Virus record (IMG/VR): IMGVR_UViG_3300028045_000012
Coordinates: 1,558 to 65,557 of that record
Direction: 5' to 3' (one strand)
DNA length: 64,000 nucleotides
From: a virus
Lineage: Duplodnaviria > Caudoviricetes
Notes under the pieces: generated by a model
Databases searched by the model: none
What the model saw: only the letters and a program-made list of their open reading frames with translations
Told to the model about the DNA's origin: nothing
Program-made: the position numbers and the translations under genes
In this document: one piece after another, positions 22,023-50,697 of the stretch
Layout of the letters: each line of letters begins with the position of its first letter
Numbering within the stretch: the first letter of the stretch is position 1

Positions 22023-24095
22023 TTATGTAGAAATGGGGATTAAACTATGTGAAATAGTAATCATTGGGTTATCAATCACTTCTACAGGATCTATACTGTA
22101 TGCCATTTCATCATCTTTTACTTGAGTAGGATCCCCTTGTTCTTTTTTATTATCAAAGTTTTGTTGGTGTTTATTATCATTTTTTGTACAATGTATTTCC
22201 ACAAGTTCTTTGTATTTTTCCGTATCTCTTTTAAATTTATTTATTTTTTCATTAGTAAATGGGTTTTCCAAAGGAGTCTGATTAAAGGCCATATCCATTA
22301 TTTTGAGTAACCTTTTTGATTTATTTTCTATAAAAAATTCATTTAAAGTATCAATATCAGTTAATAAGGTTGTATATTTGTCATCACATAATATCTTCAT
22401 ATTAGGGTTTTCCTTTTTCAACTCTGTTATAATAGTATTAAATTCTTTTTTTTCTACAAGGGCACTAAACTTATCTATGTTACCTTTAATGTCATTAACC
22501 AGTGTATTACAAATACATTTTTCTGGTTTTTTGTCTTTACAATTTATTTTTTTACAAGCCAAGTCTAATCCAAAGACACCACCTTCCCATACACCTGATA
22601 AGAATTTCTGAATAATGGATAGATAATCCTCTATCCTTAAAAAAACCTTAATAGGGTTTATTAAGGGGAATTTTTTTTCGTTATATAACTCATCTTCTTT
22701 GTATTGAATTATATTTGCGAATATATAACTATATATAAGAGCCTCCCTTCCAAGTTTTGTACCCTCTCCAAGAAGTCTCAACCCACCTTCTAATGAGTTA
22801 AGTTCTACACCATTTCTTAATTTTTTCCAAAGTTCTCTATTTAAAAACAAAGAATGGTACTTACCACCATCCGGTATCTTGTCTAGCAACCCTTTAGGAT
22901 TTCCAATAGATGTTGACAATACTTTTTTTAACATTTTAAGGGGTATATTGATTAATACATAAGAAGTCTTAGGGAATAAACTTCTAGGTACTGTAGAAAT
23001 ATATTTAAGTATACCTATTTCATTTTCATTTGTTACTTTACCAACAACTTTACTATATTCTTTCGGAAGATTTTTTGTTTCTTCAAGGTCAAATTTTAAT
23101 TTTCCTGTTGTTTCATCTATTTTTACAACCCATTTTTCTATACTATCTACTAGTTTTATTTTTTTACCCTCTTTAACTAATAAAATACCACCATTATTAA
23201 TTAAGTTATCATATATTGTATCATAATTAACACCCTTACTTGTTTTAGTAAAATCTTTATTTAAGTTTGTGAATAAGGGTTTTATTTTTTTTGCGATTTC
23301 TTCTTTATTAGCCTTTATATAAAAAGGTTCACTTGTTTTTACAATAAAATTATTAATTAATTTAGGGGTAACCTTTAATCCTTCCTTATTAAGTGTTTTA
23401 TGTTTAAAATGGTGTTTAAAAATATTTTCAATTTCTTTTTTTTGTTTTTCAATAAATTCGGGTCTTAAACCAGAGGTATCATCAAGTTTATTGTAATGTT
23501 TAATTAAATCTTCTGTGTATGCATTTTTTTTAAAATTATCAGATATTAAATTAAATAAAGGTGGATTACCTTTATATAATGTTATATATAATTTATAACC
23601 ATCAGGACTAAGTTTCTTTATTTCATCAAAATCTATATCGTAACTATCAACTTTTCTTTTAACAAATTTTCTTGGTTGTTCAAGTATAATTTCCATTAAT
23701 GATTGAAACTCTTCAATTTGTTTTTTAGTAGCCTGTTTCCATAACCGATTTCCATCTGTTTTTAATGCATTCACAAAATCTTGACTTTTTAAAACTGTTA
23801 ACAAATCTTCTGGATTATCAATTTTATATTTGTCTATTCCTAGTTTTTTTGTTGCCTTTCTATTTTTAAAAAAATTACTTAATTTAGTAGTTTTAGTTTT
23901 ACCAAGTGCCTTAATAAACTTCTTAATAGGTTGTTCCATTAATAAGTTATTGGGTAAAAATTGTGATAAAAATTCCCATTCTAAAACTAAATTATTTTTT
24001 TCTTCGTTTTTATCTACTAAATTACCATAAAGTCTTTCATTATTAAATAATGATTTCATTCTATTAATTTCTTCGTTTATGTTTTTATATTTCAT
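22023..24095 (-). CDS. Large leader-bearing hypothetical protein (putative head-packaged)
   Basis: N-terminus INEEINRMKSLFNNERLYGNL shared with 26398..27432. Confidence 0.6.
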   Translation of the reverse strand: MKYKNINEEINRMKSLFNNERLYGNLVDKNEEKNNLVLEWEFLSQFLPNNLLMEQPIKKFIKALGKTKTTKLSNFFKNRKATKKLGIDKYKIDNPEDLLTVLKSQDFVNALKTDGNRLWKQATKKQIEEFQSLMEIILEQPRKFVKRKVDSYDIDFDEIKKLSPDGYKLYITLYKGNPPLFNLISDNFKKNAYTEDLIKHYNKLDDTSGLRPEFIEKQKKEIENIFKHHFKHKTLNKEGLKVTPKLINNFIVKTSEPFYIKANKEEIAKKIKPLFTNLNKDFTKTSKGVNYDTIYDNLINNGGILLVKEGKKIKLVDSIEKWVVKIDETTGKLKFDLEETKNLPKEYSKVVGKVTNENEIGILKYISTVPRSLFPKTSYVLINIPLKMLKKVLSTSIGNPKGLLDKIPDGGKYHSLFLNRELWKKLRNGVELNSLEGGLRLLGEGTKLGREALIYSYIFANIIQYKEDELYNEKKFPLINPIKVFLRIEDYLSIIQKFLSGVWEGGVFGLDLACKKINCKDKKPEKCICNTLVNDIKGNIDKFSALVEKKEFNTIITELKKENPNMKILCDDKYTTLLTDIDTLNEFFIENKSKRLLKIMDMAFNQTPLENPFTNEKINKFKRDTEKYKELVEIHCTKNDNKHQQNFDNKKEQGDPTQVKDDEMAYSIDPVEVIDNPMITISHSLIPIST

Positions 24096-24126: not shown

Positions 24127-24777
24127 TCATAACCCTATTAATTTCGTTATATCATTTAAACCTACATTTCCTTTAGTTTTCGTATTAAATGTTGTTTTAT
24201 CTAAAAAGAAATCCAAAAAATTACTATATTTAACACATGTATTAGAGTCATTATCAAAAGTAAAACATGCCTTACTACTTGAGTTTTTAATCACATCTTT
24301 ATCTTTATTTATTAAACTATTATTCTCTTTATAACCTTTATATTTCATAGAATTTAATGTAAGGGTATTACCATCACATTGATATTTACCAACATAAAGC
24401 AATTTATCGTCCTTATTAGTTGGGGATGTTAAGTATGTATACACATATTGGTTGTCAGAATAAAAAGTGAAATGGTATTTAGGTACACCATCTTGTAGTT
24501 TGTTACTTTTAATTAATAAATAACATACTGTTTCGTTTTTATAAAAATCAATGGTGATATTTTTTGTATTCGCACCACTACTAATTAAAATATTATTCAC
24601 ACATTTTATAGTTTCATTAGTTAAACAGTTACTACTAACGTTTTGTGGTGAATAAACAGTATACTTTCTATCTCTTAAGTCCTCTGCACACTTATCTGAA
24701 TCAGGTCCACATTGTTCATTAATATTCATTAATGATTTTATTTTTTTTATTTCTTCAAGGAATAATTTTTTTTTCAT
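24127..24777 (-). CDS. Leader-bearing Cys-containing hypothetical protein
   Basis: MKKKLFLEEIKKIKSLMNINEQ leader followed by a Cys-rich domain. Confidence 0.6.
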   Translation of the reverse strand: MKKKLFLEEIKKIKSLMNINEQCGPDSDKCAEDLRDRKYTVYSPQNVSSNCLTNETIKCVNNILISSGANTKNITIDFYKNETVCYLLIKSNKLQDGVPKYHFTFYSDNQYVYTYLTSPTNKDDKLLYVGKYQCDGNTLTLNSMKYKGYKENNSLINKDKDVIKNSSSKACFTFDNDSNTCVKYSNFLDFFLDKTTFNTKTKGNVGLNDITKLIGL

Positions 24778-24801: not shown

Positions 24802-26256
24802 TTAATACATCATTGTATCACCGTACCTATTGTAGTTAAATGTATCTTTTTTATTATTATTATAAACTTTTTTCGCATAGGGACTTTCTGCGTTTTTTAG
24901 ACATTCTTCTTTCTCTTCTTTTAGTGATTCTATATAAAATTCAGGTTCTACCTTTTGTATTGATTTAATAAATATTTCCCAATATTGTTCTAAAGTTTTT
25001 TGACCTAGTGTACCATTTTTTAATGTTTTACACATATCTAATTTAGTTATATCACTAATTACATTCCCTTCATCATCAAGTAATTTTTTAAAAATCAAAC
25101 CCTTTTTATAACATTCTTTAATCGCATTTATTGATGGGCAATCTAGGATTGGGTTACCATCTACACCTATACAATCCTCATTTCCAAAAATGACCATGTA
25201 ATTTTCAAGTATCTGTTCACCATGTTTTTCTATAATTTCTAATAGAACTTCATCTTCAATTTCATCCTTATCGAATAAACTCATTATGGAAGATACTATT
25301 TTTGTTGCAACTTGTATTGTTATACCTAAACCAAGAAAAGCCGCACCCTGCCACTTTATTGTATTAATTGATTTAGGAATTTCATATTTACTTATGTATT
25401 TAAAATCTTTCACAAATCGTCCCGCAGAATTAAAATGTTTTTTTATAACATTAAGAAAATTATAATTATTATCTTCTAAAAGTTTAATAAATCTAGGTGT
25501 CTGTATTACTTGATAAAAATATTTTTTATCTATACCTCTACTCATTATAATTTTATTTAATACCTCATCATAGTTTTTAACTTTTTTACTTGTTTCTCTT
25601 ATGGTATCAAAATATTTTTTTAATTCTTTAGCGTCTTTAGGTTTTAAATTTTTTGAGTGTTTAGCTATTATCTTTTTCCATACTTCTTGTGGTAATTGAT
25701 TTATATTTTTCCCTACAGTTTTATGTACTTCTTTAATAATATTATCACCTGCTTTTAAAACATTTTTATTTAACTTTTTAAGTGCATTTATTTCAGTAAA
25801 TCCTGGTATAACACCTAATCCAGAAAATAAGGATGAAAGACCATATTTCCCAGCCTCACCCCATTTACCTTGTGTAAGGGCACCAATCCCTTTAACCCCA
25901 TAAGATACAAAATTAACAAAATCTAATATACTTGATGCCGCAGTACCAAAAACCGGTACAAAACTTACAGCTATAGATATGTTTTCTATCATACAATTCC
26001 AAAAATCTTTTTCTTCCCACACATCTTTATCCCAACAATTAAAACCACTAGCTAATTCTGTTAAAAAAGATAAATTAATGTCAGGCCCCCATACCATTTC
26101 ATTATAATTTTTAATATCAATAGTGCTATAGGGGTCACCACCCATAGCCTTAATATTTCTATCTCTAATACCATATACAATATCTGCAATATGATCAGGT
26201 TTCCCTTGTTCTAAAAACAATCTATTATATTGTGATTCAGTTATTATTATTCTCAT
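24802..26256 (-). CDS. Leader-bearing protein with hydrophobic pre-toxin-like helical hairpin
   Basis: MRIIITESQYNRLFLEQ leader; IAVSFVPVFGTAASSILDFVNFVSY..GLGVIPG; second hydrophobic stretch GAAFLGLGITIQVA. Confidence 0.55.
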   Translation of the reverse strand: MRIIITESQYNRLFLEQGKPDHIADIVYGIRDRNIKAMGGDPYSTIDIKNYNEMVWGPDINLSFLTELASGFNCWDKDVWEEKDFWNCMIENISIAVSFVPVFGTAASSILDFVNFVSYGVKGIGALTQGKWGEAGKYGLSSLFSGLGVIPGFTEINALKKLNKNVLKAGDNIIKEVHKTVGKNINQLPQEVWKKIIAKHSKNLKPKDAKELKKYFDTIRETSKKVKNYDEVLNKIIMSRGIDKKYFYQVIQTPRFIKLLEDNNYNFLNVIKKHFNSAGRFVKDFKYISKYEIPKSINTIKWQGAAFLGLGITIQVATKIVSSIMSLFDKDEIEDEVLLEIIEKHGEQILENYMVIFGNEDCIGVDGNPILDCPSINAIKECYKKGLIFKKLLDDEGNVISDITKLDMCKTLKNGTLGQKTLEQYWEIFIKSIQKVEPEFYIESLKEEKEECLKNAESPYAKKVYNNNKKDTFNYNRYGDTMMY

Positions 26257-26398
26257 TTTTCATCTTTTTTGTTTCTTCCATATACATATTAACTTCATCT
26301 TTTAAAATATCAATACTTTCTTTATCGTTAATATCATAAATGTCAATAATTTTTATTATTTCATATATTCTATCTGTTATTTCGTCTATTCTATCCAT
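26237..26398 (-). CDS. Small acidic protein, 53 aa (not in ORF track)
   Basis: MDRIDEITDRIYEIIKIIDIYDINDKESIDILKDEVNMYMEETKKMKNENNNN; TAATG coupling to the upstream stop. Confidence 0.55.
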   Translation of the reverse strand: MDRIDEITDRIYEIIKIIDIYDINDKESIDILKDEVNMYMEETKKMKNENNNN

Positions 26399-27432
26399 TA
26401 CACACAACCTTTATAAACAAAATCTTTATCTTGATTAGTATTGGGATAATAATCATTAAGTATTCTACATCTAGTTCTACATTTTTTTGAACAATATTCT
26501 TTCATCATGTTTTCAAAATCACCTTTATATTTTTTATTTAAATTTTTAAGTAAAGAGTTACTAGTATTTGATATTGACATAATTATAGCATACTCTCTTA
26601 TTGTCATTTCTTTATTACCTATAATTTTTTTTATTTTTGGTATATGATATAATAATACTGCTTTATTTTGTACTTCTTTATTTTCATTAGAAGATAAAAA
26701 CTTTTTCATATTTTTTTTCCATTCTTCATCTTCTAATTCTTTACCATTATAAACTTTTATAGTGTTTATCATTTCTTCTTCCGATTTACCAAAATATTTT
26801 TCAGTATCCATTGCTTTATATAAATGCGATAAACCACCTTTAGCAAAATCTAATATACCTACACGAGTTATATTATGTAATTTATTTGTTAAAGTTTCAT
26901 ATTTTTTTGATTTACCCATATTTGATATTATTTTATTTGTTATATCTATAATAATATCATCTGTTAATGGCACTACATTTTTATGTTTAATATTTTTTTT
27001 ATCTTTTTTTTCTTTAACTAATTCTAGTGATGTTTCAATACCAACAATACCATCAACTTTTATGTTTCTATCACTTTGAAATTCTTTTACAATATTTTCC
27101 ATTTTATTGTCAAAACTCTCACTTAAATCAATATCATAACCATATTCTTTAAGATAGTTTTTTATTTCTTTAACACCATAACCTTCATCCCCCTTTTTAA
27201 AAACTTCAGAATTATTATTATTATCTATAATTTTTTTTATTGTTTTAGTGTTAGGTGTTAGATATGAAGTGTTATGTGGTTCTGTAGTAACAACATTATT
27301 ATTTGATACTGTATCACCACCATCATCCCAGGTATATGTTTGTTCACTTAAGTTACCATATAACCTTTCTTCGGTAAATAACGATTTCATCCTGTTTAGT
27401 TCTTCATTTAAATTTTTTGGTATTTTTTTCAT
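26398..27432 (-). CDS. Leader-bearing peptidoglycan-binding protein, possible virion lysin
   Basis: PG_binding_1-like FKKGDEGYGVKEIK...VKEFQSDRNIKVDGIVGIET; start moved to MKKIPKNLNEELNRMKSLF. Confidence 0.7.
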   Translation of the reverse strand: MKKIPKNLNEELNRMKSLFTEERLYGNLSEQTYTWDDGGDTVSNNNVVTTEPHNTSYLTPNTKTIKKIIDNNNNSEVFKKGDEGYGVKEIKNYLKEYGYDIDLSESFDNKMENIVKEFQSDRNIKVDGIVGIETSLELVKEKKDKKNIKHKNVVPLTDDIIIDITNKIISNMGKSKKYETLTNKLHNITRVGILDFAKGGLSHLYKAMDTEKYFGKSEEEMINTIKVYNGKELEDEEWKKNMKKFLSSNENKEVQNKAVLLYHIPKIKKIIGNKEMTIREYAIIMSISNTSNSLLKNLNKKYKGDFENMMKEYCSKKCRTRCRILNDYYPNTNQDKDFVYKGCV

Positions 27433-27526
27433 TTTACAAATACTAAATATTATTATTAGTGGTATTAAAAATATCATATTGTATTATACAATTTTATTAC
27501 CTATATATAAATATTACCTATTACAT

Positions 27527-27590: not shown

Positions 27591-28079
27591 TTAAAATACG
27601 TTTATCGCCCTATCAAACCTAAGTGTCGCAGTAATATCCGCCAAATCTGAAGAACTATAATCTAAACCACCAAAATCAACGTCATTAAGTTGTGTACTTT
27701 GTAATATCCATTTTTGAACAACAACACCTGTTGGGTCTAACATTTCTAACTCAACGTCTTTTTTATACCCTGCGGCATACCCTTGTCTCCCAGTAACACT
27801 TTCTGAATGTAATCTAACCCATTCCATTAAGGCCTGAGTCGCAGAAGGTCCAATTGGATCTCTAAATGTCACAGAAATAGGGTCCCACCTAAATCTACCT
27901 ATTACATAAGTTTCAGTATTTAAAAATGGTATTGTAACTTCATCACTTGAATATTTTGGTCTACTTGTTGTCGATACCCACCATTCTTGTATACCTAACT
28001 CATCTGGGAATCTTAAGATAAACCTATTCTTTCTTAACGGTTCATAAGGAACAGGCATTCGCATTAATAAATCTGCCAT
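27591..28079 (-). CDS. Tail tube protein (gp19-like)
   Basis: YEPLRKNRF, WDPISVTFRD, GYAAGYKKD, LDPTGVVVQKW, DFGGLDYSS. Confidence 0.9.
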   Translation of the reverse strand: MADLLMRMPVPYEPLRKNRFILRFPDELGIQEWWVSTTSRPKYSSDEVTIPFLNTETYVIGRFRWDPISVTFRDPIGPSATQALMEWVRLHSESVTGRQGYAAGYKKDVELEMLDPTGVVVQKWILQSTQLNDVDFGGLDYSSSDLADITATLRFDRAINVF

Positions 28080-28269: not shown

Positions 28270-28773
28270 TTAATAAGGTGGTACATCCACTAAGAATTGT
28301 TTAACATCAGATGATATTTTTTCTACATCATCAAAATTAATCTTAACACTCATACTAGTGCCGAAATCATCAGGAATAACTTCATAACCTTTTTTATTCC
28401 ACCATTCTTTAACTTCTTCAAAATAAACTTTCCTTTCTTCTTTGTCATCGTAACTTGAAAAATCATATGATATTTCCTCAACATCATTTGGGTTATATGC
28501 CCTTATAAACATCATATAAGTAGATATATGGGAGAGATTATCATCCTGGTACATAGTTTGTGCCAGTCCCCAATTTAATGATTGGTTAGGTATATCACTA
28601 TCAATATCTTTAAAATCTTGTATATAAGGTTTATTTATATTTTTTAACCTATTATATAGTTTTTTCCATCTAGGATTGTTTTTTCCTTTTTCTTCATCTT
28701 TAGATTCACCTAATATTCTCATATTACTTTCTAAAATTAAATTTCTTTTTGTTTCCCAAGGTCTTCTTATCAT
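28270..28773 (-). CDS. Leader-bearing hypothetical protein
   Basis: MIRRPWETKRNLILESNMRILGESK leader shared with the next gene. Confidence 0.7.
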   Translation of the reverse strand: MIRRPWETKRNLILESNMRILGESKDEEKGKNNPRWKKLYNRLKNINKPYIQDFKDIDSDIPNQSLNWGLAQTMYQDDNLSHISTYMMFIRAYNPNDVEEISYDFSSYDDKEERKVYFEEVKEWWNKKGYEVIPDDFGTSMSVKINFDDVEKISSDVKQFLVDVPPY

Positions 28774-29256
28774 TTTTTTTATTTTTCACTTTCTTTACAT
28801 TTACTCACATCAATTTCAGGATCAACTTTAAAATATTTAGTGACACCCTCTTCTTCATTTACTAATTCAATTTCTTGAATATTTTGAAAACTATCATCTA
28901 TTTCATCAACAATTCTTTTAATCCAATCTTCTATTTTTGGATAAAAAGTATTATCGTCTTTTATTTCTTTGTTTAAATCGTGCATAACTTTTCTTTCGTA
29001 TGCCTTTGCCGCCGCAGGGTCATCATCATCCCAAGTATCCTGGTATGGACAGAAAAATTTTGCGTATTCTGATTCTTCATCTGCATAAAAAACTAAATTA
29101 TCAGATTCTTTCCACCACTCTTCTATAGTTTTACAAAAATTAACGGCAAGGTCGAAATCACTTTGTTCTTTAGATTCACCTAATATTCTCTTATTACTTT
29201 CTAAAATTAAATTTCTTTTTGTTTCCCAAGGCCTTCTTATCATTTTTTTTATTTTT
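28697..29256. repeat. 90-bp direct repeat (28697-28786 / 29167-29256) covering the translation start and leader of two genes
   Basis: Two mismatches by eye; downstream coding sequences unrelated. Confidence 0.9.
28779..29243 (-). CDS. Leader-bearing acidic hypothetical protein
   Basis: MIRRPWETKRNLILESNKRILGESK leader. Confidence 0.7.
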   Translation of the reverse strand: MIRRPWETKRNLILESNKRILGESKEQSDFDLAVNFCKTIEEWWKESDNLVFYADEESEYAKFFCPYQDTWDDDDPAAAKAYERKVMHDLNKEIKDDNTFYPKIEDWIKRIVDEIDDSFQNIQEIELVNEEEGVTKYFKVDPEIDVSKCKESEK

Positions 29257-29260
29257 ATTT

Positions 29261-29692
29261 TTAGTCGTTATCTCGTTCTGATTGCGATTCAGTTTCTTTT
29301 GCAACAGTATTTAATTTCTCCATAATTCTATTATTTACATCTAAAACATACTCATAGGCTTTTATACCTTCTTCAAGGTTTGTATCTAATACTTCCCAAT
29401 CAACACTTTGCATTTTAGATGTATAAATTTCTTTTAAAATTCGTTGAAATTCCTTTTTAGTTTCTATTAATTCTTCATTTATTTCGTTAATTGCACCACT
29501 TAGTTGGTATGCGTATTTAGTTACATTATATCCTTCCCCAGAGATTAAACCTTTAATACCTTGAATTTTAGAACCAATTTTGTTTCTAAAGAATTTTTTA
29601 ATACCTTCATCTAAGTTTTCTGAGGTATTTATAATTCTTTTTAAATCAGATTCATTTAATACAATTACTTTACCATTTTTTTTAATTTTCAT
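29261..29692 (-). CDS. Leader-bearing helical protein
   Basis: MKIKKNGKVIVLNESDLKRII leader; TATTTAT motif at 29707-29713. Confidence 0.7.
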   Translation of the reverse strand: MKIKKNGKVIVLNESDLKRIINTSENLDEGIKKFFRNKIGSKIQGIKGLISGEGYNVTKYAYQLSGAINEINEELIETKKEFQRILKEIYTSKMQSVDWEVLDTNLEEGIKAYEYVLDVNNRIMEKLNTVAKETESQSERDND

Positions 29693-29791
29693 TTTTCTAT
29701 TTTATTATAAATATATTATATTTTATTTTTTCCATAATTTTATCTTTTTTATCCTTTAATAAAAAAATAGGATAAATCCTAGTGTTGATAT

Positions 29792-29969
29792 AGTACCTTT
29801 AATGGGTACCTATACTGTTTTATATATTATATATAATTATTAATATAATAGTATAAGTACCCAAATTGGGTACATAGTAGTACTTAAGTACCTTTAATGG
29901 GTACCTATACTGTTTTATATATTATATATAATTATTAATATAATAGTATAAGTACCCAATTTGGGTACA
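29792..29969. repeat. Two 83-bp direct repeats (29792-29874, 29887-29969) bounded by GTAC-N9-GTAC palindromes
   Basis: One mismatch between copies; GTACCTTTAATGGGTAC and GTACCCAA(A/T)TTGGGTAC flank an almost pure A/T core. Confidence 0.95.
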
Positions 29970-29975
29970 CAGAGG

Positions 29976-30533
29976 TTATCTATTATCTCTTATAACACCA
30001 TAAGAATCTTGATAATATATCAGATTACCCTTGTCATCATATTCCCATTCCCACCAATCACCATCAGAATCTACAGAATATATCACATTACCCTTATCAT
30101 CATAATCCTTATTCCTCCAAAAACCATCAGAATTTCCTTGATATAACATATTACCATTATCATCATATTCCCATTTCATCCAAAAACCAGAAGAATCTTC
30201 TTGATATATCACATTACCATTATTATCACGTTCCCATTTTTTCCATGTATCATCAATAAATTCATGGTATACATAATTTCTATTTTTATCGTAGATTCCT
30301 GTTCCACTATAATAGTTACCTAAACTAAGAGTAATACCTTCACCAAATATATTTTTTAATATATATAATTGATCATCCTCATCAGTTATATCCCAAAATC
30401 CTCCATTATTTTTTTCATACATATTACTAAAATATGGTATTTCAATAATGGAAGATATCTTATCCAAGAATCTATAATATTTATCAGATTTATTTATTTC
30501 TTCCCTAAGTATTCGTTTAATTAATTTTTTCAT
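29976..30533 (-). CDS. Leader-bearing 21-aa (YD-like) repeat protein, paralogue 1
   Basis: MKKLIKRILREE leader; about 5 units of YDDxGNxIYxEDSxGxWxxxE; ends IRDNR. Confidence 0.85.
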   Translation of the reverse strand: MKKLIKRILREEINKSDKYYRFLDKISSIIEIPYFSNMYEKNNGGFWDITDEDDQLYILKNIFGEGITLSLGNYYSGTGIYDKNRNYVYHEFIDDTWKKWERDNNGNVIYQEDSSGFWMKWEYDDNGNMLYQGNSDGFWRNKDYDDKGNVIYSVDSDGDWWEWEYDDKGNLIYYQDSYGVIRDNR

Positions 30534-31167
30534 AATTTTTATCTATTATCTATTATCTATTATATCACCTTCAGAAGTTTCATAATATATTCTATTACCC
30601 TTATCATCATATTTTTGTATCTCCCACCAACCATCAGAATCTTCCCAATATATTCTATTACCCTTATCATCATTTTCCCTTTTCTCCCAATAACCATTAG
30701 AATCTTCATGATATATCAGATTACCATTATCATCATATTCAAATCTACTCCAAAAATCATTAGAATTTTCAAAATATATTTCATTTCCATTTTCATCATA
30801 TTCTTTTTTTACCCAATAACCATCAGAATTTTCATAATATATTTCATTTCCATTTTCATCATATTCTCTTTTTGCCCAATAACCATTAGAATTTTCCCAA
30901 TATACCCTATTGTCATTTTCATCATAAATATCACCTACTTTGTAGACATAGCTAAAAGAGTGACCTTCACCAAATATATTTTTTAATATATATAATTGAT
31001 CATCCTCATCAGTTATATCCCAAAATCCTCCATTATTTTTTTCATACATATTACTAAAATATGGTATTTCAATAATAGAAGATATCTTATCCAAGAATCT
31101 ATAATATTTATCAGATTTATTTATTTCTTCCCTAAGTATTTTACGTATTAATTTTTTCATAATTTTT
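30336..31167. repeat. About 205-bp near-identical duplication of the 5' ends of paralogues 1 and 2 (30336-30540 / 30963-31167)
   Basis: First 66 aa almost identical; DNA nearly identical. Confidence 0.9.
30546..31160 (-). CDS. Leader-bearing 21-aa repeat protein, paralogue 2
   Basis: 6 repeat units; ends IIDNR. Confidence 0.85.
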   Translation of the reverse strand: MKKLIRKILREEINKSDKYYRFLDKISSIIEIPYFSNMYEKNNGGFWDITDEDDQLYILKNIFGEGHSFSYVYKVGDIYDENDNRVYWENSNGYWAKREYDENGNEIYYENSDGYWVKKEYDENGNEIYFENSNDFWSRFEYDDNGNLIYHEDSNGYWEKRENDDKGNRIYWEDSDGWWEIQKYDDKGNRIYYETSEGDIIDNR

Positions 31168-31637
31168 TATCTTCTATCATCAATATAACCATCAGATTCT
31201 TCAAAATATATTACATTACCTTTATCATTATATTCCCTTTTCACCCAATAACCAGAAGAATCTTCATAATATATTATATTACCCTTATCATCATTTTCCC
31301 TTTTCTCCCAATAACCATTAGAACGTTTAAAATATATCAGATTACCATTATCATCATATTCCCATTTCACCCAATAACCATTATCATCTTCATCATATAC
31401 CCTTTTATCGTTATTATCATTGTAGATATATCTCCTGAGTTCTTCATAAAAGTAGATATCATAACCATATATCTTCTTCATTATATATAACTGATCGTCC
31501 TTATCATATATGGTTAATCCTTCCATTGATTTAAAATAAGGTAAATCAACATGATCAGATATTATATCTAATCTACGATAATGTTTTTCAGATTTATTTA
31601 TTTCTTCCCTTAATATTTTACGTATTAATTTTTTCAT
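31167..31637 (-). CDS. Leader-bearing 21-aa repeat protein, paralogue 3
   Basis: About 4 units; N-domain shared with 51061..51576; TATTTAT motif at 31651-31657. Confidence 0.85.
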   Translation of the reverse strand: MKKLIRKILREEINKSEKHYRRLDIISDHVDLPYFKSMEGLTIYDKDDQLYIMKKIYGYDIYFYEELRRYIYNDNNDKRVYDEDDNGYWVKWEYDDNGNLIYFKRSNGYWEKRENDDKGNIIYYEDSSGYWVKREYNDKGNVIYFEESDGYIDDRR

Positions 31638-31664
31638 ATACTTTTATTATATAAATATTATTAA

Positions 31665-31699
31665 AAATAAAAAACCCCCCTAAATATTTTAGGAGGGTT
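31665..31699 (-). terminator. Intrinsic terminator after the tail sheath gene
   Basis: Minus strand AACCCTCCTAAA-ATA-TTTAGGGGGGTT followed by a T tract. Confidence 0.75.
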
Positions 31700-31728
31700 A
31701 AATATACAAATTATTTTAATAAATTTTA

Positions 31729-34575
31729 TTAAATATCATCAAAACTTGCCCCTGTATTTGTAATATTAAACTCAATTGAAATGAATTCCAAAGACCTTGT
31801 TGGTTTTATGAAAATCCTACCATTAAGTTCGTTTCTATCAATTGATTCAGGTGTATCATCCAATACAACTCTAAAATCAGTTAATCCTCTCTCCTTTCTA
31901 ATATTATCTAAAATTGGATTAACTAAACTTAAGAACTGATTTCTAACAACATCATCATTTTGTTCAAATAATAATCTGATGGATACTGCGGAAATAAGTT
32001 TTCTTGCCTGTAATAATAATCTTCTGACATTAATTCTATTAAGTGCAGTTTCTTTTACTTGTAAAGTTTTATTACCAAATATAACCACACCAACATCTGA
32101 AAATGTTGCCATTGGATTAATTCTACCCTCATATAAATCATCTCTATCCGCCAATTTAAGTTTAACTCTTGCCTTAATTGCGTTTGTAACACCTCTATTT
32201 AATCCTGCCGAGGCAAACCAAGGAAATGCGATGTTATCCGTTAATGCGATGTTTCTAACAACTTCTAACGTAGGTGGTAACCATACGTATCTGTTGTTTT
32301 CTGTATCATTCATCTGTAACCAAGGCCAATACGTTGCCGAATAATTAGAATCAATTGCCGAATCCTCAATTATATCAATTGCCTCGCCAACTGTTAAGGC
32401 AACACCATCATCATCAGTATCAGGTGTATTAATAATGTAAAGTGAATCCGCCCTATCAACTTCAACCATATCAACTGCGTTTTCTATTAATCCAGGTTGG
32501 TCCCTTAAATCTAAACCTGGTGTTGCGAATACATTTATATTTACTGCCTCAGGATTATTATACGTGTATATACCATTTAGGAATGCGTAATAATCAGAAT
32601 TAATTCCATCATCACCTTCACTAGTAACATAATTTGAGAAAACACCTGTCGAGTTTAATCCTAAAGACCCCAAAGTACCAGTTTTAGTATATGTGTCTTT
32701 ATTAGTTCTCTCAGTCCTATATTCATCCCATCCATCCCATCCACCAAAAGGTGCAAATGTGAATTTTCTTGCCGCCAATTTATCATATGGTCCGCCAACT
32801 ATACTAGAGTTTGAAGTGAATGCGGATACACCAACTTGTAATGTCGGTACATAACTATTAACACCTAATTCTACTTTTGCCCCATTTGCGTTAACATCTA
32901 AATGGAAACCATCCGTTTTACCAGTATATGCACCATTATTAACTGCGTTTAATCCTTTATAATCAAAGAAATCTTGGTCAACACCTATAGAACTATTTAA
33001 ACCTAAATATGTTTTTCTTAATTTAGATGTGTTAAAATCAGTGTATTGTGTTTTATATTCTATCTTAGGTGGTAATGCGGTACTATCACCAATATAAGTT
33101 CTATTTAAAACACCTTCAAAACCCGCAGGGAAATGGTTAGGTAAGTCAGGATCATTTTGATCGTATAACTCAACCATTATATATTTACTCCTTAATGGAT
33201 ATTCCCCATCACTAGTACCAATTTTTCTTGCGATAAACCCAGTTGATGTACTATCTAAAGAAAGTGAAGAATATTTTTCAACTACTGAAAGATTTGTGTC
33301 AGTATCATTAAACTTCCTTATTAATAAATCAAATGTTTTTTCATCAGGTTTAACATTAATAATTGAAAATTTAACATCCTCATTTGCCGAATTACCATCA
33401 GAAATAGTTATAAATCTAAATAATCTTTGTAATGTTGCCCCGGCACCTACACCTTTTAATTCAGAAAGAACCCAAGGCGATGCGGCAGATTTCCATATTT
33501 CTTTATAATTATTTAAATTATTTGTTATTGTAGAACCAATATTTACAAATGTAGTATCTAAACCTCTTACTTTTTCCGCAGATATTAAATCCTCTAATAC
33601 ATTACTATAAAGTTCTTCAACCCACAATTCTGTTTCTTTATCTTGTGTTGAACTCCCAAATACTCTAGGTAAAAAATTCTTTTTAGTTTTATCTAAAGAT
33701 ACATCATATGTAAATGATGAACCATTACTTGAAGTACCTGTTACACTAAAAGATTTTTTTGCATCACTTTTAATGTTTGTTATATTAGACATACCGGTAT
33801 CAGTTGATCCTGTTACATCGTATACTAAATCTTCAGAACCACCATAAGTACCCCTTGACCTAAGTGTTGCGATAACACTACCATCAATGTCTGTATAACA
33901 AGTCGCACTATAGTTAACAACTGTACCCGATGTTACACCCGTTACAAATAAACCTGAAGTACCTTGTTCTATTACTTCCATATCGAAAGTCGCCCCACTA
34001 AAATCACAATTAGTTTTAACATATTTTTGTGATGTAAGTGAAATTGTATCTCCCGTTACTTTTAAACCTAAAGATGTAAATAAATCACTTATTTGGTCAT
34101 CATTATATAATGCCTCTAAATTAGAGTTTGACCAATCTAAAGTAACTGGTGTCCCCCCTGTTGATGCGGTATATGTTAATAAAGGGTTAACACTATCAGT
34201 TCCCGTAGTTCCTACCGTAGAAGGATCTTCGGAAGAATCTAATGTAATACACCAGGCGTTTCCTGCGTCATATCCTGATAACCCCAATACTCTACTTACA
34301 TAAAGTTGATTAGTTTGAGTTAAAAAAGATTTCGCAATGTAATTTAATTCAAATTTTTGGTAACCCGTACCTTTGAATTTTTCTGGATTTAAAGTTCCAA
34401 AATAACTTGTAAATTCATCATAGTTTGAAATAAAAACGGGTTCAAACGCAGGACCCTTTGGTGTTTCACCTAATAACCCTAATGTTGTAACCCCTACTTG
34501 TCTTGTCACAAATGTTAAATCCTTTTCAGATGTAAACACACCAGGACTAACAAAAATTCTATCTGTTGATGCCAT
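31729..34575 (-). CDS. Contractile tail sheath protein (gp18-like)
   Basis: FVSPGVFTSEKD, KGPAFEP, ATYWPW, PWFASAGLNRG, GNKTLQ, RINVRRLL, LFEQND, KPTRSLEFI. Confidence 0.95.
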   Translation of the reverse strand: MASTDRIFVSPGVFTSEKDLTFVTRQVGVTTLGLLGETPKGPAFEPVFISNYDEFTSYFGTLNPEKFKGTGYQKFELNYIAKSFLTQTNQLYVSRVLGLSGYDAGNAWCITLDSSEDPSTVGTTGTDSVNPLLTYTASTGGTPVTLDWSNSNLEALYNDDQISDLFTSLGLKVTGDTISLTSQKYVKTNCDFSGATFDMEVIEQGTSGLFVTGVTSGTVVNYSATCYTDIDGSVIATLRSRGTYGGSEDLVYDVTGSTDTGMSNITNIKSDAKKSFSVTGTSSNGSSFTYDVSLDKTKKNFLPRVFGSSTQDKETELWVEELYSNVLEDLISAEKVRGLDTTFVNIGSTITNNLNNYKEIWKSAASPWVLSELKGVGAGATLQRLFRFITISDGNSANEDVKFSIINVKPDEKTFDLLIRKFNDTDTNLSVVEKYSSLSLDSTSTGFIARKIGTSDGEYPLRSKYIMVELYDQNDPDLPNHFPAGFEGVLNRTYIGDSTALPPKIEYKTQYTDFNTSKLRKTYLGLNSSIGVDQDFFDYKGLNAVNNGAYTGKTDGFHLDVNANGAKVELGVNSYVPTLQVGVSAFTSNSSIVGGPYDKLAARKFTFAPFGGWDGWDEYRTERTNKDTYTKTGTLGSLGLNSTGVFSNYVTSEGDDGINSDYYAFLNGIYTYNNPEAVNINVFATPGLDLRDQPGLIENAVDMVEVDRADSLYIINTPDTDDDGVALTVGEAIDIIEDSAIDSNYSATYWPWLQMNDTENNRYVWLPPTLEVVRNIALTDNIAFPWFASAGLNRGVTNAIKARVKLKLADRDDLYEGRINPMATFSDVGVVIFGNKTLQVKETALNRINVRRLLLQARKLISAVSIRLLFEQNDDVVRNQFLSLVNPILDNIRKERGLTDFRVVLDDTPESIDRNELNGRIFIKPTRSLEFISIEFNITNTGASFDDI

Positions 34576-34671
34576 TAATTATTTATTTTTAGTTAATATT
34601 ATTATTTTCTTTTTATATAAATATATCGTATTTCTTAAAAAAATTTTATTTTAATATAATTAAATAAAAAT

Positions 34672-34867: not shown

Positions 34868-35779
34868 TCACCAATCTACTAATGTGTTTGTTGCAGATTT
34901 AAACCCAAAATTATATAATTTTCTTAATTTTGTGGGGTTTGTATCGTATAATTCTTTTATGATATAAGGTATAAATATTTGTTTATTTTTTATTGTTCTT
35001 TTTTCCCTACCAGATATTAATTCTAATAAGTATTTTTCTTCTATTTCATCTTTTTTACTTATTTCTATTGCATCTATATCAGTAAGTCTTGTAAATACAC
35101 TTATCATATTATGATCTGACCAATCACTATCTAATATATGTTCATAATTTTGTGGTCTTGCGAAAACTGAAATGACTTCTGTTATATTTGAAATGTTTTC
35201 TAACATCCAAGGTGATAATATATGGTTCCTAACACCACCATCATATAAAATCATATTTTTAAAATGTACCCCCTCAACTGCCAATGGTATACTCGCAGAG
35301 GCGTTAATTAATAGTAAAAAATCATCATAACTATATTTTTTATCTTTAATGTTTATTATGAATCTACTACCAGTTTTAAAATCTACTGAACCAATCCATA
35401 CATTGGGGAACTCACCTTCTTGATACCTTATAAAATCTTCCTTAGATACTATTCTACTAATAGTTAATGGTAGATTATTTTGAGTGCCAAAAGAAGATCT
35501 CCCAAATAACGCCCTAAACTTAGCAGTAATACTTATTTTGTTTTTTTTATTAATAGGGATACTATCAAATATATCGTCAATGGTAAATATTTGTGTGAAT
35601 TCTCTAAGTATATCCCATTTACGTAAGGCAATTGGTATACCTAAAATACCCCCAGAACTTATACCACTAATGTCTGTAGGTCTATAACCTAAAACATTAA
35701 ATATATAATCACATGCACCGGCAAGACCAGAGATCTTTGTTCCTGCCCCTGATAAGTTAAGTATTTTTCTATTTTCCAA
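34868..35779 (-). CDS. Patatin-like phospholipase
   Basis: LSGAGTK Gly loop, GISSG (GxSxG) nucleophile, ASASIP, YDGG catalytic Asp. Confidence 0.9.
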   Translation of the reverse strand: MENRKILNLSGAGTKISGLAGACDYIFNVLGYRPTDISGISSGGILGIPIALRKWDILREFTQIFTIDDIFDSIPINKKNKISITAKFRALFGRSSFGTQNNLPLTISRIVSKEDFIRYQEGEFPNVWIGSVDFKTGSRFIINIKDKKYSYDDFLLLINASASIPLAVEGVHFKNMILYDGGVRNHILSPWMLENISNITEVISVFARPQNYEHILDSDWSDHNMISVFTRLTDIDAIEISKKDEIEEKYLLELISGREKRTIKNKQIFIPYIIKELYDTNPTKLRKLYNFGFKSATNTLVDW

Positions 35780-47546: not shown

Positions 47547-50450
47547 ATGTTAGATTTAAAAGATATTAATAATTTAAATAGTGAAACTTTATTAGAAAGT
47601 TATAAAGGTAAAAACCCTTACATAGTTTACATGAAAAAAAAATTATGTGAGGATAAGAAATATATTTTAACTAATAATCAATTAAGTTATGTAAGAAAAT
47701 ATTATAATTTTGAACCTAAAGAACTTAATAAAGTAATAGAATTAACAAATTATTTTAGTGAAGAACTAAAAGAAAAATACAAATTAAAATCCCCACCTAA
47801 AAAAATATTAATAGAAACATTATTGGCAGAATCTGATAAGGCAATGCATGTTTTATGTAAATTTTATCAAAACCAAAAAGGTGTTAAATTAGTATGGATC
47901 CCAAAAACACAATTATTAGATGACATATATTATGAGGAAATCAATGTAGATGTAGATTTTGACTATTATCAAAGAATAGATAAAAGAGGTTGGAAGGCAT
48001 TTAAACATCAAGAAGAAGGGATTAAATTTTTATTGAAAAATAAAAAGTGTATTTTGGCCGATGATATGGGACTTGGGAAATGTTTAGAGGTTGATGAATT
48101 GGTGTACACACCAAATGGTTTAATAAGGATTGGTGACATTAAAATAGGTGATTATGTAATTGGGTCTAATGGTAAAAAAACTAAAGTACTTAGTGTATAC
48201 CCACAAAAAAATAAGAAAAAAATATTTAAAATAACTTTTAATGATGGTTATAGTCTATTAGTTACTGAAGATCATTTATGGGATGTTATGAGTTGTAACA
48301 ACTCAAATAATAGAAATAATGGTAGAAATAAAAGACATTTATTGTTAACCACAAAACAAATGTTAGATGGTAATGGTGAAGTAGAGATTAAAGGTAGTGG
48401 TTCTAATAAAAATAGAGTTTATAAAGTAAAAACATATTATAAACAAAAAAATGGTACATTAAAATGGCAAATACCGTTACTAAGTGAACCTATTCATTTT
48501 GAAAATAAGAAAAAATTATTAATAGATCCTTATTTATTAGGAGTTTGTCTTGGCGATGGACATATAAAAGAAAAATCTGTAAGACTTGAAGTTCATAAAG
48601 ATGATTTTGAAGAAATTTTTAAAGGACAAATAATAAAAGAGAATAAGTCAAAACCTAATACAAGGAGATGTACTATTAAGGTAGGTGAATCAATTAAAAA
48701 ATTAAAATTAAATAATAGTAGATCATATAATAAATTTATACCTAATGTTTATAAATATTCTTCTATTAAAAATAGGTTGTCTATACTTCAAGGTCTGATG
48801 GATACAGATGGACATTGTTGTAAACCAATAGATGGTAATTTTCGTGGTACAAAATTCTGTTCTATTTCTGAAAAACTAGTTGATGATGTTGCAGAAATTG
48901 TACATAGTTTAGGTGGTATAGTGAAAAAAAATAGTTGGATACCTACATATACGTATAAAAATGAAAAGAAAAAAGGTAAGAGGGCGTATTCTTTATACAT
49001 TAAATTACCTGATGGAATGAATCCTTTTAGACTGAAAAGAAAGTCTAATTTATATAATTCTCCTAAAAAATATAAAGTTGGTAGATATATAAAAAGTATT
49101 GATTATGTAAGAGAAGGTGATTCTGTATGTATCTCTGTTGATTCTGATGATCACTTATTTGTTGCAAAACATGGTATAGTTACACATAACACATACCAGT
49201 CAATAACTGCATCATTAGAAAGTGATGCGAATAGAATATTAGTAGTTTGTCCTTCATCATTAAAAATAAATTGGATGAGAGAAATAGAAAATTTCACTGA
49301 TGATGTGTCAATAATAAATGGATCACATTGGGACCCTTCCCGGTTTACTATAATAAATTATGAAATATTAAAAAAATTCCATACAATAAAAGAAAAAAAT
49401 AAAGAATATGAGGACTGGGAACTTAGGAGAGAGATTGTTGAATATAATCCAGATATAATAATATTAGACGAGGCACATTATGTTAAAAACCATAAAAGTA
49501 ATAGGGGTAAAATAATAATAGATATCGTGAAAAATTATGGTACTGAGAAGGTATGGTTGTTAACTGGGACACCTATTGCAAATAGACCTATGGATTACTA
49601 TAACCTTTTATCAATTATAGATTCACCTGTTACAAATAATTGGGTACATTTTGCAAAAACATATTGTGAAGGTAAAAGGTTTAGAAAAGGTAAAAAATAT
49701 ATATGGGTAACTAAGGGGGCATCTAATCTTGAGGAATTGTCTGCAAAAACAAGAAAAACTATATTACGTAGGAAAAAGGAAGATGTGTTAGATTTACCTG
49801 AAAAATTAGTAACACCAGTTTATTTAGAACTTAAAAATGTTGACCAATATAAAAGTGTGTGGGATGATTATCTATTAAAACGTAAAGAAGAAGGGAAAAG
49901 GGGGAATCCTGCAAGGGATTTAGTAGAAATGACTTTATTGCGAACATTTATTTCTATGGAAACTGTACCGTATTCAATAGAAAAGGCAGAAGAGGCTTTA
50001 GAATTAGGTAAAAAAGTTATAATATTTTGTAATTTTAATGATGAAATGGATGCATTTATAACTCATTTTGGTGATAAATCTGTTTGTGTAAGGGGTGGAA
50101 TGAGTAATAAACAAAAACAAATTTCTGTTGATAAATTTCAAGAAGATAAAAATTGTATGGTTTTTATTGGTCAAATAAAGGCTGCGGGTGTTGGTTTAAC
50201 ACTAACAGAGGGTGAAATTGTTATTATGAATTCTTTAGATTGGGTTCCTGGTACACATGAACAGGCAGAAGATAGGGCATATAGGATAGGACAAAACAAA
50301 ACTGTTAATATTTATTATATGTTAATAGATAAAACTATTGACACATTGATTTGGAAAATTTTACAAAATAAAAAGAAAATCATTGGAACTATAATAGGTG
50401 AAGATGAAATTATAACAGAATTTATAAATGAAACAAAAAATGAAAGTTAA
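47547..50450 (+). CDS. SNF2-family helicase containing an intein
   Basis: LADDMGLGK|T, CPSSL, DEAH, LTGTP, GVGLTL, QAEDRAYRIGQ. Confidence 0.93.
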   Translation: MLDLKDINNLNSETLLESYKGKNPYIVYMKKKLCEDKKYILTNNQLSYVRKYYNFEPKELNKVIELTNYFSEELKEKYKLKSPPKKILIETLLAESDKAMHVLCKFYQNQKGVKLVWIPKTQLLDDIYYEEINVDVDFDYYQRIDKRGWKAFKHQEEGIKFLLKNKKCILADDMGLGKCLEVDELVYTPNGLIRIGDIKIGDYVIGSNGKKTKVLSVYPQKNKKKIFKITFNDGYSLLVTEDHLWDVMSCNNSNNRNNGRNKRHLLLTTKQMLDGNGEVEIKGSGSNKNRVYKVKTYYKQKNGTLKWQIPLLSEPIHFENKKKLLIDPYLLGVCLGDGHIKEKSVRLEVHKDDFEEIFKGQIIKENKSKPNTRRCTIKVGESIKKLKLNNSRSYNKFIPNVYKYSSIKNRLSILQGLMDTDGHCCKPIDGNFRGTKFCSISEKLVDDVAEIVHSLGGIVKKNSWIPTYTYKNEKKKGKRAYSLYIKLPDGMNPFRLKRKSNLYNSPKKYKVGRYIKSIDYVREGDSVCISVDSDDHLFVAKHGIVTHNTYQSITASLESDANRILVVCPSSLKINWMREIENFTDDVSIINGSHWDPSRFTIINYEILKKFHTIKEKNKEYEDWELRREIVEYNPDIIILDEAHYVKNHKSNRGKIIIDIVKNYGTEKVWLLTGTPIANRPMDYYNLLSIIDSPVTNNWVHFAKTYCEGKRFRKGKKYIWVTKGASNLEELSAKTRKTILRRKKEDVLDLPEKLVTPVYLELKNVDQYKSVWDDYLLKRKEEGKRGNPARDLVEMTLLRTFISMETVPYSIEKAEEALELGKKVIIFCNFNDEMDAFITHFGDKSVCVRGGMSNKQKQISVDKFQEDKNCMVFIGQIKAAGVGLTLTEGEIVIMNSLDWVPGTHEQAEDRAYRIGQNKTVNIYYMLIDKTIDTLIWKILQNKKKIIGTIIGEDEIITEFINETKNES
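48081..49190 (+). mobile_element. Intein (370 aa) with LAGLIDADG homing endonuclease
   Basis: Begins CLEVD after GLGK, ends VTHN before Thr; block B TEDH; LLGVCLGDG and LQGLMDTDG. Confidence 0.95.
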
Positions 50451-50697
50451 AGTATTTTCTATGAAGGGTTGTTCACATTGTGATGAATTAAAAAAACAGT
50501 TAAATGAAAATAAAATAAATTTCATTGAATTGGATGTTGATGAACATGAAGAGTTATATGAAAGTTTTTCAAAAAAAGTGGAGAATGAATTTTTACCTGC
50601 AATTATTATAGGTAAGACAGTATTTGTCCCTAATAAGTCATTTAAAACTATAACTGAGGCGGTGGGACATGTTAAAACTCACCTGTTGGGGCCTTAG
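50428..50697 (+). CDS. Glutaredoxin-like protein
   Basis: CSHC redox motif, LPAIII; true start may be 50440. Confidence 0.85.
   Translation: MKQKMKVKVFSMKGCSHCDELKKQLNENKINFIELDVDEHEELYESFSKKVENEFLPAIIIGKTVFVPNKSFKTITEAVGHVKTHLLGP

Follow-up and report, generated by a model that had tools for sequence, protein, structure and literature searches.

Small capped YD-repeat strips with hypervariable positions form a multigene phage family: probable diversified binders, possibly loaded into the phage head

Why does a phage carry five diverged genes for one small repeat protein? The question is raised by a 64,000-nucleotide stretch (here called the window), positions 1,558 to 65,557 of the IMG/VR virus record IMGVR_UViG_3300028045_000012, in which three such genes lie in tandem and two more lie some distance away. 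A sequence-only reading had described a mosaic family built from 3-6 copies of a 63-bp unit, with a fixed consensus, a few widely varying positions and a D(N/D)R or DRR-type end cap, and had proposed a recombination-diversified binding scaffold with one variable face. All five open reading frames (ORFs) were found where that reading had placed them, on the minus strand.

The first cluster consists of paralogue 1 (29976-30533, 185 aa), paralogue 2 (30546-31160, 204 aa) and paralogue 3 (31167-31637, 156 aa), and the second of paralogue 4 (51061-51576, 171 aa) and paralogue 5 (51583-52062, 159 aa). These are two tight operons with gaps of 6 and 12 nt. Paralogue 3 is the first gene of the three-gene operon, with the start of paralogue 2 lying 6 nt past its stop, and paralogue 5 is the first gene of the second cluster. 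All five share one layout, which begins with a basic leader of 11 residues and a small cap domain of helices (the N-domain), continues with 3-6 units of 21 residues each and closes with G-x-I-x-D-(N/R)-R. The N-domain is of type a in paralogues 1 and 2, type b in paralogues 3 and 4, and a longer type c in paralogue 5. Paralogues 1 to 5 contain 4, 5, 3, 4 and 2 full units, each followed by one terminal cap unit, which is shortened in paralogue 4. The caps end in DNR in paralogues 1, 2 and 4 and in DRR in paralogues 3 and 5, and the stop codon follows directly in all five, as the proposed type of end cap had implied. All five proteins are acidic (isoelectric point, pI, 4.4-5.0), free of cysteine and without a signal peptide. 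When paralogue 2 was used as a query against the 65,557-base record, all five matches were these five genes (E 1e-136 to 4e-17).

Tandem Repeats Finder reported a 63-bp period in every one of the genes, with 2.7-5.6 copies and 72-80% matches (the array of paralogue 3 spans 31185-31420), and together with the 21-residue register this bears out the 3-6 copies first described. A hidden Markov model of the unit was built from the 18 window units and run on the five paralogues and 120 homologues, giving 686 domain hits, 309 of them full and ungapped. Twelve unit positions are near-invariant, with an entropy of at most 1.2 bits: Y1, D2, G5, N6, I8, Y9, E11, S13, G15, W17, K19 and E21. Positions 18, 10, 7, 16, 20, 12, 14 and 3 vary, with entropies from 3.4 down to 2.2 bits, and over the 309 ungapped units from 125 family proteins they are frequently Tyr, Trp, Phe, Arg, Lys or Glu. 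The consensus and variable positions noted earlier thus hold over both the 18 window units and the 309 family units.

The fold of these units was examined with profiles and a structural model. TIGR01643 (YD_repeat_2x) matched paralogue 1 at 23.6 bits (cut-off 15.8) and paralogue 4 at 12.9 bits, with no match for the other three proteins; Pfam PF05593 (RHS_repeat) reached 14.7 bits with paralogue 1, under its cut-off of 22, and did not match the other four. A 91-sequence family profile searched against the PDB gave 13 matches, all of them Rhs, Tse5, Tse15 or teneurin-like (E 5.6e-14 to 5.2e-5). The AlphaFold2 model of paralogue 2, made from a 91-sequence alignment, had a predicted local distance difference test score (pLDDT) of 90.4 and a predicted template modeling score (pTM) of 0.77. 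Helices were predicted at residues 2-12, 17-29, 34-37 and 52-63, with a pLDDT below 50 for residues 1-10. Beta-strands fill the repeat region of the model, 11 of them in a regular 21-residue register, so that unit positions 7-12 and 17-1' form strands and positions 13-16 and 2-6 form loops. Foldseek placed RhsA 7q97 (E 2e-8) and Tse15 8uxt (query TM-score, TMq, 0.53; root-mean-square deviation 3.2 over 128 columns) at the top. Matches to Rhs shells had a probability of 1.0 with TMq up to 0.54, and further matches were teneurins, Tc BC components and engineered single-layer OspA sheets.

The earlier suggestion of a YD-type beta-hairpin meander is therefore upheld by TIGR01643 for paralogue 1, the PDB profile matches, the model and Foldseek. 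It is well supported that the units are YD hairpins in a short open strip, capped at one end by the helical domain and at the other by the G-x-I-x-D-(N/R)-R unit, and we are highly confident that the proteins make up a stand-alone YD strip family. The 21-residue Y-D-x-x-G-N ... G ... Y-D unit is homologous to that of the Rhs, Tc-BC and teneurin shells (RhsA 7q97, Tse15 8uxt, RhsP 8h8a, teneurin-2), and each unit is predicted to contribute one beta-hairpin to a continuous antiparallel sheet, as in those shells. Unlike Rhs shells, which have dozens of units, the window proteins have 3-6 and are without a cocoon, plug, autoproteolytic core end or toxin domain; their helical N-cap and hypervariable checkerboard are not described features of Rhs.

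Two other identities were considered and rejected. An Rhs or Tc-BC toxin container was ruled out, as the proteins are 156-204 aa with 3-6 units, end right after the cap and form no closed shell and carry no toxin. RHS_core scored only 14-21 bits against a cut-off of 2000, and no core-end autoprotease motif, PAAR, VgrG or TcB domain was found in the five proteins with Pfam and NCBIfam. MORN repeats, which the sequence-only reading had named alongside YD repeats, are also short beta-hairpin repeats that form elongated single sheets and occur as multigene families in large viruses. YwqK-type immunity proteins are MORN-variant repeat proteins. In contrast to such proteins, none of the five matched a MORN family in Pfam at E<=1, the structural matches to MORN proteins in BFVD, with giant-virus proteins among them, came from rank 6 on and were weak (TMq 0.2-0.3), and the family profile points to YD repeats.

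Are the eight variable positions under selection to change? The window and 60 related loci supplied 183 unique units of 63 nt, and the proportions of nonsynonymous (pN) and synonymous (pS) differences were compared by position. In the 109 closest unit pairs, pN at positions 7, 10, 12, 14 and 18 was 2.2- to 3.8-fold the mean pS. At the skeleton positions of these pairs the ratio was mostly at most 0.4, with position 6 at 0.9. With 54 disjoint pairs, pN/pS was 1.59 at the eight variable positions, or 1.56 against the pooled pS (bootstrap 95% range 1.21-2.05), and 0.20 at the 13 skeleton positions. In more distant pairs pN/pS drifts towards 1. Variable positions thus outpace synonymous sites and the skeleton is strongly constrained (1.59 vs 0.20), as a comparison of dN/dS by position had been expected to reveal for a diversified scaffold. 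An excess of amino-acid change at the variable positions is well supported.

This result bears on the possibility that the proteins are inert head-filling or assembly proteins, a scaffold-like core in which the variable positions are merely unconstrained. The acidic, cysteine-free composition of all five would suit such a role, T4 heads hold about 1000 copies of internal proteins (PMC3012670), and a pN/pS near 1 in distant unit pairs fits relaxed constraint. Relaxed constraint does not account for the closest pairs, where pN exceeds pS 2- to 3.8-fold at positions 7, 10, 12, 14 and 18, nor for a disjoint-pair range that excludes 1. Moreover, the variable positions favor Tyr, Trp, Arg and Lys instead of a random mix, and keeping 5 to about 27 diverged copies per record would be costly for a filler. 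We consider inert filling very improbable.

The genes are also mosaic. In the N-domain, paralogues 1 and 2 match exactly over tracts of 114 nt and 63 nt, and over codons 16-60 they are 98-100% identical in nucleotides per 15 codons, whereas their repeats are merely 60-86% identical. Inside the repeats, paralogues 2 and 3 share exact tracts of 47 nt and 30 nt, and paralogues 2 and 4 one of 35 nt. The segment NGYWEKRENDDKGN, which had been pointed out as common to paralogues 2 and 3, corresponds to the exact DNA tract of 47 nt. For 19 of the 22 units, the nearest unit sits in another gene. Metagenomic relatives extend this pattern. In P0007, the N-domain type of paralogue 4 is combined with 83 C-terminal residues that are 100% identical to the end of paralogue 2; P0073 pairs a different N-domain with the final 74 residues of paralogue 3, and P0037 carries the paralogue 5 N-domain with a longer repeat array (243 vs 159 aa). 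P0082 is paralogue 3 with five changes, all within the first 22 residues, and in P0001, otherwise paralogue 2, the end of one unit has been replaced by that of the unit after it. Shared exact tracts between paralogues and metagenomic chimeras together confirm the recombination mosaic that had been proposed. A mechanism involving a diversity-generating retroelement was set aside: no reverse transcriptase was found among 44 window proteins with PHROGs or 36 with Pfam, with about 19% of the genome in hand.

Considering the fold, the YD homology, the skeleton-plus-variable pattern, the recombination and the excess change, a diversified binding scaffold is the most economical explanation, and we regard it as likely, with real room for doubt. 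The twelve conserved positions of each unit would hold the strip together while the eight exposed positions would vary freely. The genes would evolve by duplication and loss of units, gene conversion between paralogues and swaps of whole N-domains, and the phage lineage would therefore keep changing its set of binding proteins.

One part of the binding proposal is not supported by the model, though it may still hold. The variable residues had been placed on a single face of the strip; in the register of the model they fall on both faces and in the turns. The assignment of faces rests on the strand register of the model, with six-residue strands taken as pairing end to end. In this register, positions 8, 10, 12, 17, 19 and 21 would lie on one face and 1, 7, 9, 11, 18 and 20 on the other. 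Variable residues 7, 18 and 20 would thus share a face, 10 and 12 would be opposite, and 3, 14 and 16 would be in turns, with variable and conserved residues alternating in a checkerboard-like way. A shift of one residue would gather 10, 12, 16, 18 and 20 on a single face. Coupling of variable positions, measured as mutual information across 798 unique units, pointed both ways: the pair 7-20 (z score 8.2) suits the register from DSSP, the pair 10-20 (6.5) suits the shifted register, and the pair 10-18 was absent.

Where would such binders act? The leader is the first clue. Codons 1-11 of paralogue 3 (31605-31637, minus strand) encode M-K-K-L-I-R-K-I-L-R-E, and equivalent 33-nt leaders open the other four genes (31128-31160, 30501-30533, 52030-52062 and 51544-51576, all minus strand). 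The consensus of the five is M-K-(K/R)-L-I-(K/R)-(K/R)-I-L-R-E, in which M1, K2, I5, I8, L9 and E11 are at least 90% conserved over the 91-sequence alignment. Leaders of this kind are not confined to YD proteins. Three small genes downstream of paralogue 1 (29261-29692, 28779-29243 and 28270-28773, minus strand) have related leaders with (L/I)-x-E-S on bodies unrelated to the YD proteins. A small gene downstream of paralogue 4 (50672-51034, minus strand) opens with M-K-I-I-I-T-E-S-Q-L-K-K-I-L-K-E, again on an unrelated body, and its I-I-I-T-E-S-Q leader recurs in the product of 24802-26256 (484 aa, no known family) and in some YD relatives. A short leader on otherwise unrelated proteins of one phage is therefore present in this genome, on the five YD genes and five further genes. 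The relative P0130 links the leader type of 29261-29692 to that of the YD genes. Similar leaders also head series of unrelated genes at other phage loci, as in the relative L022, where one stands on 5 or 6 unrelated adjacent genes. Within the first 25 residues, (L/I)-x-E occurs in 9 of 9 small leader proteins vs 10 of 40 other window proteins. The neighboring leader genes and the unknown genes of the relative L001 gave only sub-threshold noise in Pfam at E<=0.1.

A second clue is a promoter-like motif, TATTTATATA, at 31648-31657 on the minus strand, 11-20 nt upstream of paralogue 3. The window contains 12 matches vs 3.3 expected, and none of 100 shuffles reached 12. Eight of the 12 sites lie 2-48 nt upstream of a same-strand start, mostly of structural-looking genes. 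Among the 12 sites are 18211, 21056, 27504, 31648, 34614, 52143, 56579 and 62647. The starts behind the eight include those of the sheath, lysin-like and neck-like genes; of six replication genes examined, none has the motif upstream. Paralogue 5 has a copy with one mismatch. We regard TATTTATATA as a candidate late promoter of this phage lineage. A terminator-like hairpin (CCCTCC ... GGGGGG, then a T run), read from the sequence, lies between the sheath stop and TATTTATATA at 31669-31698 on the minus strand. The T4 late -10 consensus stood upstream of just 3 of 49 genes scanned and was not used.

These features resemble the internal proteins of phage T4. Unrelated T4 internal proteins have in common just a 10-19-residue N-terminal targeting propeptide (PMC3012670), the T4 prohead protease cuts after L/I-X-E (PMC9026906), IPI* is injected and inhibits a restriction enzyme of the host, and T4-type phages have diverse internal cargo sets (both PMC9026906 and PMC3012670). 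Like T4 IPI, IPII, IPIII and Alt, the window proteins carry a short N-terminal peptide ending in L/I-X-E on unrelated small bodies. Unlike the T4 proteins, the window cargo is a repeat scaffold present in many shuffled copies and also as multi-module polyproteins. To our knowledge, multi-module polyprotein cargo is not known for T4.

The polyproteins came from a search for longer forms, in which 120 of 5472 candidates reached E<=1e-5; 250 proteins were fetched. Strings of 4-9 complete modules per frame (N-domain, YD units and cap) were found in P0131, P0133, P0134, P0135, P0141 and P0148, with 8 modules in the 1780 aa of P0131 and 9 modules in P0133. Two or more N-domain signatures were present in 46 of the 250 proteins. 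In these 46, a motif [LIV]-x-E-[SNEKQ] preceded internal N-domains by at most 40 residues in 130 of 131 cases vs 283 of 920 random windows. The linker is nearly always N-x-(L/I)-N-E-(S/N), and it looks like a protease site.

Other modules are fused to YD units in single metagenomic clusters. P0204 fuses MuF_C (86 bits) to YD units, P0195 is a fusion with HAD_SAK_1, and P0182 one with a domain of the uracil-DNA glycosylase (UDG) superfamily. In P0164, YD modules and an Acb1-like 2H-phosphoesterase domain form a polyprotein with this type of linker; the domain scores 26.8 bits, marginally below its cut-off of 27. MuF proteins belong to the DNA-packaging module and have been proposed as phage-delivered (PMC5576092). 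The P0204 fusion suggests a likeness to the MuF polymorphic toxins of temperate phages described there, in which variable cargo rides on a head-associated carrier. In contrast to those toxins, the window genes are without a MuF domain, and their cargo is a binder-like repeat with no toxin domain.

Could the strips instead stay in the cytoplasm, as unpackaged binders of host or rival-phage proteins that serve host takeover or anti-defense? On this account the leader would be a recombination or translation cassette, or no more than the cap domain's opening helix. The window YD genes have near-identical stop-start junctions, as expected for recombining cassettes, and the Acb1-like, HAD_SAK_1 and UDG-superfamily fusions point to nucleic-acid and anti-defense biology. 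Further material for this account is found outside the close relatives of the window phage. Members of a much larger, leaderless group begin with a short cap (about 20 residues), continue with the same units and a D-N-R-P-K cap, and finish with one of several 25-residue tails. The context of its arrays was read from 132 neighbor proteins at 12 loci: arrays of up to 15 genes lie amid genes for RNA ligase, polynucleotide kinase, exonuclease, helicase loader, RecT and methyltransferase. Relatives in the cultured Verrucomicrobia phage P8625 lie inside the replication module.

A cytoplasmic role agrees less well with the window-type genes themselves. In the window phage and its close relatives the genes are found in the sheath-tube and terminase-portal modules, behind the structural-gene motif: in L005 a YD gene comes directly after the sheath gene, and in L001 six YD genes surround the terminase and portal. 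The leader is conserved as protein on unrelated bodies. Its low confidence in the model suggests that it is not packed on the domain. Finally, the Phi-x-E junction (Phi, a hydrophobic residue) is kept inside polyproteins, where neither a start codon nor a promoter is needed. We judge purely cytoplasmic binders to be rather unlikely, with a genuine case in their favor.

The location of the genes suggests another role, that of a decoration or adhesin on the virion surface, in which the N-domain would fix the strip to the tail or capsid. The variable residues would then recognize glycans, or the surfaces of hosts or particles, in a Hoc-like or immunoglobulin-like manner. The genes lie between the tail sheath (31729-34575, 948 aa) and the tail tube (27591-28079), near a neck-like gene and with the late-type motif. 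Furthermore, the YD repeats of Rhs and teneurin proteins are extracellular, to go by the titles of the PDB matches, and bacterial relatives have the cell-envelope domain Cu_amine_oxidN1. Against this, the proteins had no similarity to known decoration or fiber proteins in PHROGs or BFVD; the sole PHROGs match, to an unnamed family, was weak (E 0.007) and involved the N-terminal part of paralogues 1 and 2. The occurrence of the same leader on many unrelated small proteins and of leaderless relatives in non-structural regions is likewise hard to reconcile with a surface role, and three N-domain types would require three anchoring sites. Surface display is therefore improbable in our estimate.

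Loading into the head is favored over these accounts at modest odds because of the T4-like features: the leader, its L/I-x-E end, the shared motif, the late-module position and the polyprotein junctions. The odds are modest because most of the family manages without the leader. We infer a binding function, head loading, cleavage, injection and a target as follows. The YD genes would be transcribed together with structural genes. By analogy with T4, the amphipathic leader, which ends in I-L-x-E, would act like the capsid targeting sequence of internal proteins and dock the protein in the prohead, where the prohead protease would remove the leader after Glu. The acidic mature strips would then exit with the DNA and bind host factors, probably defense proteins. 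By the T4 analogy, head loading with cleavage is possible, at somewhat less than even odds, and the whole chain up to and including head loading is given a probability of about 0.38. A defense protein as the target is unlikely by comparison. The most far-reaching form of the idea, in which the strips are head-loading cargo made as single genes or as strings of up to nine modules, cut after Phi-x-E and injected as a recombining library of binders against host defense, is more doubtful still.

Several observations weigh against this chain. Leaderless relatives with C-terminal tails lie amid replication and RNA-repair genes, including those in the P8625 replication module. Not every member of the family can therefore be packaged, and the scaffold works without head loading in most of them. 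A search with PF03420, the prohead protease family, gave no match in the window record or in four related records, but none in control genomes either, so this negative is uninformative. The nine leader proteins include paralogues and are not independent, and (L/I)-x-E is common, as the 10 of 40 controls indicate. The conserved polyprotein linker could simply be a structural helix cap. The TATTTATATA count was tested against shuffles of the whole window, though intergenic DNA is more AT-rich. The pN/pS values come from simple Nei-Gojobori counting on paralogous units in a genome with a GC content of 28%, where codon bias can inflate them. Lastly, the model register offers no single obvious binding face, since the variable residues would be on both.

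How widespread are the strips? Of 2672 candidates from a word-seeded search, 1118 proteins reached E<=1e-3; most are unnamed, and some are auto-named "YD repeat-containing protein". IMG/VR yielded 142 confirmed stretches, and the 60 loci retained contain 177 ORFs with at least two units. Five other virus records had 2, 10, 14, 20 and 27 matches, with roughly 10-27 for some records of jumbo phages. The nearest ESM Atlas clusters are viral and unnamed, or carry RHS_repeat in part. Judged from these sequence matches, the family is large and mainly viral. The window-type leader and N-domain are confined to close relatives: a search with residues 1-76 of paralogue 2 against 1.84 billion representatives gave 15 matches at E<=1e-3. 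Of these 15, P0121 and P0128 proved to be unrelated long repeat proteins, and P0126 (4377 aa, 11 stretches) was set aside as probably of the same kind. Many of the tails of leaderless proteins (L010, L015, L024, L036 and others) resemble a helix-turn-helix, for example ...L-T-L-E-Q-I-A-A-K-L-G-I-x-V-x-Q-L-R-I-K-D. Two alternative tails are found on other leaderless proteins, and tails travel with arrays.

The phage itself, which is uncultured, appears, by gene content (sheath, tube and UvsX-like genes), to be a distant T4-type jumbo myovirus. Its record has a completeness of 19% (CheckV). The replication-type genes in the window encode a family-B DNA polymerase, a DnaB-like helicase, a UvsX-like recombinase, a single-stranded DNA-binding protein and a ribonucleotide reductase, and the sheath is just 27-38% identical to the nearest sheath proteins of cultured phages. 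The region is present at least partly in 20 public runs from 14 studies, from seawater or sediment and mostly seawater, and no RNA runs were listed among these 20. In all four runs compared, metagenome contigs over the YD genes (at least 85% likeness) were short and fragmentary: there were 357-587 contig pieces per run and 148-168 partial fits, with many joints whose sides were about 21-76 letters. Joints of this kind often stem from foreign organisms or repeats, and they support no reading on variants or expression. A DNA search of a phage collection with 29700-34600 gave no match.

Other features of the window were observed along the way. Directly downstream of the paralogue 1 stop, 29792-29969 is a 95-bp tandem duplication (1.9 copies, 98% matches) that carries two GTACCCAAWTTGGGTAC palindromes, a palindrome found nowhere else in the window; the duplication could be a terminator or a recombination element. 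A second N-terminal motif, N-E-E-(I/L)-x-(R/K)-(M/I)-K-S-L, is near the start of three otherwise unrelated products adjoining the tube gene (22023-24095, 24127-24777 and 26398-27477), one of which has a peptidoglycan-binding domain. A gene for a patatin-like phospholipase (34868-35779) lies just upstream of the sheath gene. The SNF2-type helicase at 47547-50450 has an intein-like insert (Cys-Leu-Glu start; Thr-His-Asn end, then Thr), which explains its matches to intein-bearing terminases and primases in PHROGs. The product of 58780-62610 (1276 aa) consists mostly of a 42-bp (14-residue) tandem repeat in about 37 copies and matched an unnamed PHROG in nine stretches.

The literature covered, which did not extend to subscription journals, contained no account of multigene families of small YD-repeat proteins in phages; the phage-linked YD-repeat papers among those listed concern Rhs, type VI secretion systems or large toxins. 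The use of a known repeat as a free-standing, capped, hypervariable viral mini-scaffold appears to be new. The YD unit is familiar from the walls of large toxin containers and of teneurins, and here it forms a small free-standing capped strip. This strip has been amplified to roughly 5-27 copies or matches per record and shuffled, with the fastest change at eight exposed positions, a pattern of variation that resembles immune receptors and engineered repeat binders. The family comprises more than 1000 sequence clusters in ocean and other viromes, with no assigned function. The Phi-x-E junctions at the leader and between modules provide a handle on whether marine T4-type phages load large sets of head cargo. 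If the injected library described above were real, it would be a phage counterpart of an antibody repertoire on a YD-hairpin scaffold. If the strips bind host defense or surface molecules, they would be a major unrecognized class of phage counter-defense or recognition proteins and a compact natural scaffold for binder engineering.

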